64,000 nt of DNA from positions 33,957-97,956 of IMG/VR virus record IMGVR_UViG_3300022602_000051. One strand, written 5' to 3'. Both the position numbers and the translations under genes were made by a program. This DNA comes from a virus. Of this stretch, positions 52,919-53,759 are shown piece after piece; position 1 is the stretch's first letter, and every line of letters starts with the position of its first letter. A model generated the notes under the pieces. The model was not told the origin of the DNA, made no database searches, and saw only the letters and a list, made by a program, of their open reading frames with translations.

Positions 52919-53594
52919 GCAGTTTTTTTGTCTCTAAAAGTGGCGGAATCTTCATTTTAATCCGCACATAATGCAAACGGGTTTTGTTATCTTCGTCATG
53001 TTTATGGATGCGGGCTGTCAAAATAATGACAGTTCCACGCTCGCATTTGTCTGCAAACGGAAATAGCACAAGGCAGTTATCTTCTGTCAGCGCAGTATGA
53101 TACCACTTGTTATAATTATAGCTAAAAACTGCCGAAATAATGGTGACTTTACCCTCAAAATTATCACCTACTTTGCCAAAATGACGACTTTTGTCTTGCA
53201 AATCCTTAATTTCATCCCGTGCATTTTCACGATCAATAGCGTTTTTATAGGAACTTGGCACACTGGCAATGAGTGCTAACGCCTTGTAATCACTGGACAA
53301 AAACTCTTTTTGTTCGGTCAACAGAACAAGATTTTTCCAGTAATCGTGCAGTGTTCCGCCAATAAGTTCAAACATCTTGCTGTCAAGATATTCAAGAATT
53401 TGTTCAGCACTTTCAATATCTTGCGGCAAAATCTTAACGTGCTCAATCTCAGGATTTAAAAGATCACGCATCAGAGCGCCATTGCTTTCCTCACCCTTTT
53501 CTTTATCCGCCTCATAGCGTTTGATATAACGACCATTGATCCGTTGTGCCGCACAAGCAGCAGAAATAGCCTCTTTTAGGGTCATAGTGGTCAT
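52905..53594 (-). CDS. Hypothetical protein, possible C-terminal OB-like fold
   Basis: 229-aa ORF coupled (ATGA) to the ArfA-like gene. Confidence 0.7.
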   Translation of the reverse strand: MTTMTLKEAISAACAAQRINGRYIKRYEADKEKGEESNGALMRDLLNPEIEHVKILPQDIESAEQILEYLDSKMFELIGGTLHDYWKNLVLLTEQKEFLSSDYKALALIASVPSSYKNAIDRENARDEIKDLQDKSRHFGKVGDNFEGKVTIISAVFSYNYNKWYHTALTEDNCLVLFPFADKCERGTVIILTARIHKHDEDNKTRLHYVRIKMKIPPLLETKKLLDNP

Positions 53595-53707
53595 TTTGCA
53601 CCTTTATGCTTAGGTTTACGGCTATAGCTACCCTTGCCCTTACGGGGAGTGACAATTTTTTGACGGTATTTGGGGTCCGCAAGGGACTTTGCAATAAGGC
53701 TACGCAT
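53591..53707 (-). CDS. arfA: ArfA-like alternative ribosome-rescue factor (38 aa; absent from the ORF track)
   Basis: MRSLIAKSLADPKYRQKIVTPRKGKGSYSRKPKHKGAK matches the ArfA core (DP..RQ.....KGKGSY.RK.KH); GGAGA SD; own promoter. Confidence 0.8.
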   Translation of the reverse strand: MRSLIAKSLADPKYRQKIVTPRKGKGSYSRKPKHKGAK

Positions 53708-53731
53708 CGCTAGTTCTCCATCTATAATGCT

Positions 53732-53759
53732 AATTTAGCATAATTTATGGATTTGTCAA
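53732..53759 (-). promoter_or_regulatory. sigma70-type early promoter of the arfA-like gene
   Basis: cTTGACA-N16-TAAATT with TG extension. Confidence 0.6.

Follow-up and report, generated by a model that had tools for sequence, protein, structure and literature searches.

In Escherichia coli ArfA (YhdL; family PF03889, known from gamma- and betaproteobacteria; PDB 5MGP, 5MDV, 5U4I, 5H5U and 7OJ0), a basic tail, KH pair included, occupies the vacant mRNA channel of the ribosome, residues Q27-E30 form an added strand on domain 2/4 of RF2, and F25 touches RF2 (PMC8012679, PMC5378476). The E. coli protein is active when truncated at N47 and inactive when truncated at M40 (PMC5378476). Residues 1-11 turn back onto the decoding centre, T7 and K8 being located on h44 and I11 packed on A18, while a hydrophobic patch made up of L19, L24 and F25 holds W319 of the RF2 switch loop (PMC5378476). 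The A18T variant has lost the ability to activate RF2 and retains RF2 binding (PMC5378476, PMC8012679). By design, the arfA gene yields a non-stop mRNA, by way of a hairpin, an RNase III site or a terminator, and encodes a hydrophobic extension (PMC8012679). Two further small proteins are relevant here. Francisella tularensis ArfT, with 40 residues and its own stop codon, is a proven rescue factor, and its mRNA level is unchanged on disruption of ssrA (PMC6299226). Bacillus subtilis BrfA is likewise a rescue factor and is dependent on RF2.

ArfA has been called restricted to Gammaproteobacteria and some Betaproteobacteria, and a survey of 2376 Alphaproteobacteria reported arfA in none of them and arfB in 2022 (PMC11633108). 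Phage copies have nonetheless been named: gp30 of the pelagiphage HTVC027P, whose expression is high at both 3 h and 12-15 h post infection, has been called ArfA (PMC12753301), and gp10 of the Citromicrobium phage RXM is annotated as such (PMC8953757). We found no experimental test of any phage ArfA copy in the literature.

Here we describe an ArfA-like gene in a 64,000-nucleotide stretch of viral DNA (positions 33,957 to 97,956 of IMG/VR record IMGVR_UViG_3300022602_000051), hereafter referred to as the window. An earlier note, made from the letters of the DNA, had proposed a 38-residue peptide ending in TGA at this locus, and our translation is exactly the one quoted there: read from 53707 to 53591 on the minus strand, the open reading frame consists of an ATG followed by 37 codons and the TGA. 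The peptide has a net charge of approximately +12. The features of the locus are collected in Table 1, together with the viral and bacterial loci discussed below.

Table 1 Features of the ArfA-like locus in the window and of related loci.
Feature	Position or loci	Strand	Remarks
ArfA-like gene	53591..53707	minus	38 codons + TGA; translation, Pfam ArfA match, pN/pS
Shine-Dalgarno GGAGAA	53714..53719	minus	7 nt 5' of ATG; nearly invariant in 13 related loci
Likely sigma-70-type promoter, TTGACA, 16-nt spacer, TG-extended TAAATT	53732..53759	minus	10/12 matches in scan
15-nt perfect palindrome ATGCTAAATTAGCAT	53727..53741		overlaps -10 box
229-residue gene, phrog_2319, unassigned function	52905..53594	minus	ATG overlaps the ArfA-like stop as ATGA
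126-residue gene, unassigned function	53756..54136	minus	upstream; its TGA lies inside the -35 hexamer
GQWSARKAQ fusions	L073, L075, L083, L085, L086, L098, L101, L104, L105, L107		match at ~1500-1600 in most
SAR11 example	L130 3004-3120		between response-regulator-like gene and kinase gene

The promoter, the ribosome-binding site and the coupling to the next gene had likewise been put forward in the earlier note. A consensus promoter scan of this AT-rich region found 6 sites, compared with 6.5 expected from shuffles. Despite this chance-level result, we accept the promoter before the ArfA-like gene, which is likely to be real, because an alignment of 13 diverged related loci shows TTGACA to be invariant and both the TGnTAnATT box and GGAGAA to be nearly so, while the flanks are variable. 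The TTGACA and -10 box are kept in diverged relatives both with and without the ArfA-like micro-gene. The proposed coupling agrees with the ATGA overlap with the 229-residue gene. The same alignment shows that the leader GATGGAGAAC (53713-53722) is kept at the same leader in related loci. The palindrome ATGCTAAATTAGCAT forms a small hairpin in the computed RNA fold, and may represent an operator or a small hairpin.

A sequence scan found no terminator-like site within the ArfA-like open reading frame, and RNA folding placed no hairpin in its 3' part; the fold of the open reading frame with its flanks is not unusual (z = -1.46). The stop codon, located 10 residues past the KGKGSY motif, is therefore the gene's own, as had been proposed, and neither a hairpin nor an RNase III site nor a terminator precedes it. 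It follows that the gene lacks the non-stop-mRNA (tmRNA) control of the arfA type.

The search against the ArfA family that the earlier note had called for returned a clear match: the peptide scores 38.3 bits against PF03889, for which the curated cut-off is 25.5, and covers profile positions 18-44 of 44. The PF03889 match was found again in a genome-level search, at 36.3 bits. Of the solved structures, only ArfA chains of E. coli, taken from ribosome complexes, match at E < 1e-4 (E 3e-5), with phage residues 5-35 aligned to ArfA residues 16-46. We also built a canonical profile restricted to 46 long-tailed ArfAs, all but a few of which are gammaproteobacterial. This profile gives the peptide 52.3 bits over residues 2-37, while the best of 2000 shuffles of the same composition reaches 10.4 bits, and the likeness to ArfA is for this reason not a composition artefact. 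Judged by these sequence and structure matches, the 38-residue peptide is a true ArfA homologue. An NCBIfam search of the peptide and a megablast of the region against isolated phages gave no match. The tblastn matches in Enterococcus phages are weak (E 0.2-0.3), as is that to phrog_37108. The term 'arfA' in the earlier version of an Enterococcus preprint was taken to be the name of an anti-restriction gene and was discarded; it is gone from the current version.

Alignment relates phage residue n to E. coli ArfA residue n+11, with homology extending over approximately residues 12-49 of the E. coli protein. Within the helix, N14, L20 and D22-P23 are kept (phage N3, L9 and D11-P12). At the positions that contact RF2, F25 is replaced by Y14 and R26-Q27-R28-V29 by RQKI, with R15-Q16-K17-I18-V19 aligning to R26-E30; the peptide thus appears to possess the RF2-recruiting strand Q27-E30 as well as the aromatic residue at position 25. 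The tail retains K34-G-K-G-S-Y39 (phage K23-Y28), R41-K42 (R30-K31) and K44-H45 (K33-H34), and ends at the equivalent of residue 49, so that the predicted basic KGKGS(Y)/KH tail reaches beyond residue 47. In contrast, the minidomain by which E. coli ArfA opens RF2 (residues 2-16, I11, A18 and the L19/L24/F25 patch) is for the most part lacking. ArfA residues 1-11, including T7, K8 and I11, are absent, which agrees with the shortened N-terminus described in the earlier note. A18 is replaced by K7, L19 by S8 and L24 by K13, leaving Y14 as the only member of the patch, an aromatic residue. As far as can be read from the alignment, the ribosome-sensing and RF2-docking parts are present and the RF2-opening part of the E. 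coli protein is largely absent. A predicted complex of the peptide family alignment with E. coli RF2 scored 0.26, below the mark of 0.32, and carries no weight here.

Among copies of 38 residues, pN/pS ranges from 0.00 to 0.33 (28 pairwise comparisons), and over the 114 nt a pair shows up to 13 synonymous changes against 5 non-synonymous ones. A protein search with a 40-codon reference, consisting of the open reading frame and two upstream codons, recovered near-identical proteins from other metagenomes, 38 or 44 residues in length. The 38-codon open reading frame is a genuine gene under purifying selection.

The virus record containing the window comprises 97,956 bases and is 29% complete by CheckV. 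A 95% identical copy occurs in a relative whose genome is complete, with 338,435 bp and terminal repeats. The polymerases of Atu_ph07, Phosso and Rak2-like jumbo phages, whose hosts are Alpha- and Gammaproteobacteria, share 43-50% identity with the DNA polymerase found here, and DNA runs of at least 18 studies show the DNA to be present in lake and freshwater metagenomes. The source is a freshwater jumbo phage of approximately 338 kb, in which the ArfA-like gene is located in the replication-gene region. Genes nearby on its strand code for, among others, a 5'-3' exonuclease, the DNA polymerase and a MoxR-type ATPase accompanied by a VWA/metallopeptidase partner. The MoxR-type AAA ATPase gene adjoins a DUF2201 gene with metallopeptidase-like and VWA-like domains (49822-52338, minus strand). 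Elsewhere, the window contains a single open reading frame of 4622 residues in a structural region (6369-20237, plus strand) and several adjacent radical-SAM-domain genes (33776-41908, plus strand), followed by an aminotransferase gene on the opposite strand (45253-46365). Searches of the window and of the full 97,956-base record yielded no tRNA or tmRNA gene. Neither the record nor the complete 338,435-bp relative contains a release factor or a tmRNA, so that any release-factor partner of the peptide must be that of the host.

We gathered 34 related viral loci by means of the downstream 229-residue gene. An ArfA-like open reading frame occupies the same spot in 20 of these, exactly between the start signal and the 229-residue gene, and occurs in two forms: one of 38 residues ending in KHKGAK, to which the window's copy belongs, and one of 39 residues ending in KKQKETSND. 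The gene is absent from the remaining 14, where the promoter and GGAGAA...ATG lead directly into the 229-residue gene. A tree of the 229-residue protein places the 38-residue type on one side of a branch with support of 93/91. The 39-residue type and loci lacking the gene are intermixed in this tree, and well-supported branches force at least 2 changes. The ArfA-like micro-gene is an accessory, dispensable gene.

A pattern scan of IMG/VR based on the family alignment revealed that at least 224 viral contigs encode relatives. Among the best 80 of these, approximately 60 stop 6-13 residues past the motif, approximately 10 continue at the C-terminus into an unrelated, fused domain of 70-115 residues that has a conserved GQWSARKAQ motif, and some do not contain the KH pair. 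In a scan of bacteria with one genome per species, the nearest relatives belong to Pelagibacteraceae (SAR11): these are approximately 35-40 residues long, have their own stop and are located on large chromosomal contigs. In addition to the example in Table 1, further Pelagibacteraceae copies are found at loci within L119-L185. Canonical gammaproteobacterial ArfAs recovered by the same scan possess the head YQHxKGxIKDNAIEALLHDPLF and extend 20-48 residues past the motif. Across 101 Pelagibacterales genomes that are at least 80% complete (including one unpublished genome, G088), 49 contain one ArfA-family match each (E <= 1e-3), the open frames being 33-70 residues long, and 20 of those 49 matches lie above the Pfam cut-off. 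A third gene with an RF-1 domain, i.e. ArfB, was found in none of the sampled Pelagibacterales genomes. Two cultured phages contain unannotated family members: in Caulobacter phage Cr30 (L199:535-696), the host of which possesses ArfB and lacks ArfA, it lies two genes upstream of an RNA ligase, and in Ralstonia phage RsoM2USA (L200:526-720) the annotated CDS is on the opposite strand.

A short form with its own stop is thus the normal design of a large phage and SAR11 subfamily. The earlier note's reading of the peptide as a minimal version freed from control is right in that non-stop-mRNA control is lacking; it is not special, since the same short form is the rule in phages and SAR11. Similarly, the gene is uncalled in its own record, as that note had it, but it cannot be considered new to annotation in general: JGI gives near-identical metagenome proteins the name 'stalled ribosome alternative rescue factor ArfA', and phage ArfAs appear in PMC12753301 and PMC8953757. 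The JGI name indicates that Pfam-based pipelines already label the short branch, which seems to have gone unnoticed in the literature on ribosome rescue covered by our search.

Compared with E. coli ArfA, the phage peptide lacks the hydrophobic C-terminal extension in addition to residues 1-11, and its gene lacks the hairpin, RNase III site and terminator; it has its own stop, is phage-borne and is accessory. The copies from SAR11 and other Alphaproteobacteria, together with HTVC027P gp30 and RXM gp10, share its design of 34-60 residues, a short basic tail and an own stop, and have in common with it the RN-x-x-A-K/R-x-L helix, Y/F-R/K-Q-R-V and KGKGSY. They are the nearest relatives outside the peptide's own phage clade. 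The SAR11 copies differ in being chromosomal and mostly without the KH pair, and the two named phage copies in having longer N-terminal extensions. By its described properties, ArfT resembles the peptide in its length of approximately 40 residues, its own stop, the lack of non-stop-mRNA control, a basic tail with a KGKGS-like stretch and the recruitment of a release factor to non-stop ribosomes. It differs in being regarded as a family of its own and in its ability to work with either RF1 or RF2. BrfA is similar in being small and in that its channel-binding tail has a KH pair; elsewhere its sequence is unrelated, its N-terminus is helical and it is made from a terminator-truncated non-stop mRNA.

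With moderate confidence, we favour the view that the peptide is a release-factor-dependent rescue factor without tmRNA control; that it binds ribosomes, recruits and activates a release factor and benefits the phage is what we infer. The rescue activity, the protection from defence RNases and the dominant-negative mimicry put forward in the earlier note are likewise hypotheses. The ArfA-like gene would be the first of a transcript initiated at a conserved host-type (sigma-70-like) promoter and, as it ends in an ordinary stop codon, the peptide would be made whenever that promoter fires, independent of the host tmRNA system. Where a message is broken or has no stop codon and a ribosome has stalled at its 3' end, the C-terminal tail KGKGSYSRKPKHKGAK would enter the vacant mRNA channel. 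The middle part (Y14, R15-V19) could then join domain 2/4 of a class-I release factor of the host as an additional strand, RF2 being the most likely candidate. The release factor would then cut the peptidyl-tRNA, and the ribosome would be recycled without a tmRNA degradation tag. For the phage, the benefit may lie in free ribosomes while messages are being cut during infection, be it by nucleases of the host or the phage or by RNase-type defences. We prefer this rescue function because the sensing and docking parts are kept under selection, because the design is chromosomal in SAR11 genomes that lack ArfB, and because ArfT provides a precedent. A single-copy, chromosomal short form in ArfB-less SAR11 fits a working cellular rescue factor and not an inhibitor. 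Counted against rescue are the apparently missing RF2-activation part together with the changes at A18, L19 and L24, the species specificity of ArfA-RF2 pairs (PMC8012679), and the dispensability of the gene, which 14 of 34 loci do without.

The missing activation minidomain, the lysine at the A18 position and the polar nature of two of the three hydrophobic-patch residues would also suit a peptide that merely plugs the channel. Such a peptide would bind the empty mRNA channel and perhaps recruit closed RF2 without subsequent hydrolysis, much like ArfA(A18T), which binds the ribosome and recruits RF2 and does not activate it (PMC8012679). As the channel-binding tail overlaps the SmpB site (PMC8012679), both tmRNA-SmpB and the host back-up factors would be blocked, which could protect truncated phage proteins against tagging or bring host ribosomes to a halt. 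We consider a plug of this kind, although it is the main rival, unlikely: streamlined SAR11 chromosomes without ArfB, on which an inhibitor would be hard to keep, retain the short design, K/R in place of A18 included, and ribosomes locked with peptidyl-tRNA would harm translation of the phage too. It is similarly doubtful that the peptide is either a viral decoy that sits in the vacant mRNA channel, perhaps keeping RF2 closed, and so blocks trans-translation and back-up rescue of the host, or an activator of the release factor by a new route without the ArfA minidomain.

Two further explanations dispense with stalled ribosomes. A net charge of approximately +12 in 38 residues, the relatives that do without the KH pair and the fusion of approximately 10 of the best 80 (of at least 224) viral relatives to an unrelated domain would be in line with a general basic RNA- or DNA-binding peptide, which shares ancestry with ArfA for the tail only and has an unrelated function. 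The match, however, is not confined to the tail but reaches the helix and the RF2-contact strand (N3, L9, D11-P12, Y14-R15-Q16), and shuffles that preserve the composition reach at most 10.4 bits, making this explanation improbable. Alternatively, the position of the open reading frame between a conserved promoter/ribosome-binding site and the 229-residue gene, with a stop that overlaps the start of that gene, could indicate a leader peptide or upstream open reading frame that merely sets the expression of the coupled gene. We rejected this reading as highly improbable: it is the amino-acid sequence itself that is under purifying selection, hundreds of phages and bacteria have homologous peptides in gene contexts unrelated to this one, and in relatives without the ArfA-like open reading frame the same signals drive the downstream gene.

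The ArfA of the textbooks, a back-up factor under tmRNA control, is said to be limited to gammaproteobacteria and some betaproteobacteria; the short branch, which has its own stop codon and is without the known RF2-activating part, spans hundreds of phage contigs as well as SAR11, which is among the most abundant bacteria. The gene in the window is a further member of this branch, and such genes are already named in databases. Should the short form turn out not to rescue ribosomes, it would be a viral ribosome plug, and if the decoy reading were true, it would represent the first known viral inhibitor of ribosome rescue. If, as we favour, the short form does rescue ribosomes, the E. coli structures would overstate how much of ArfA is needed for release-factor activation, and phages would routinely bring their own rescue factor.
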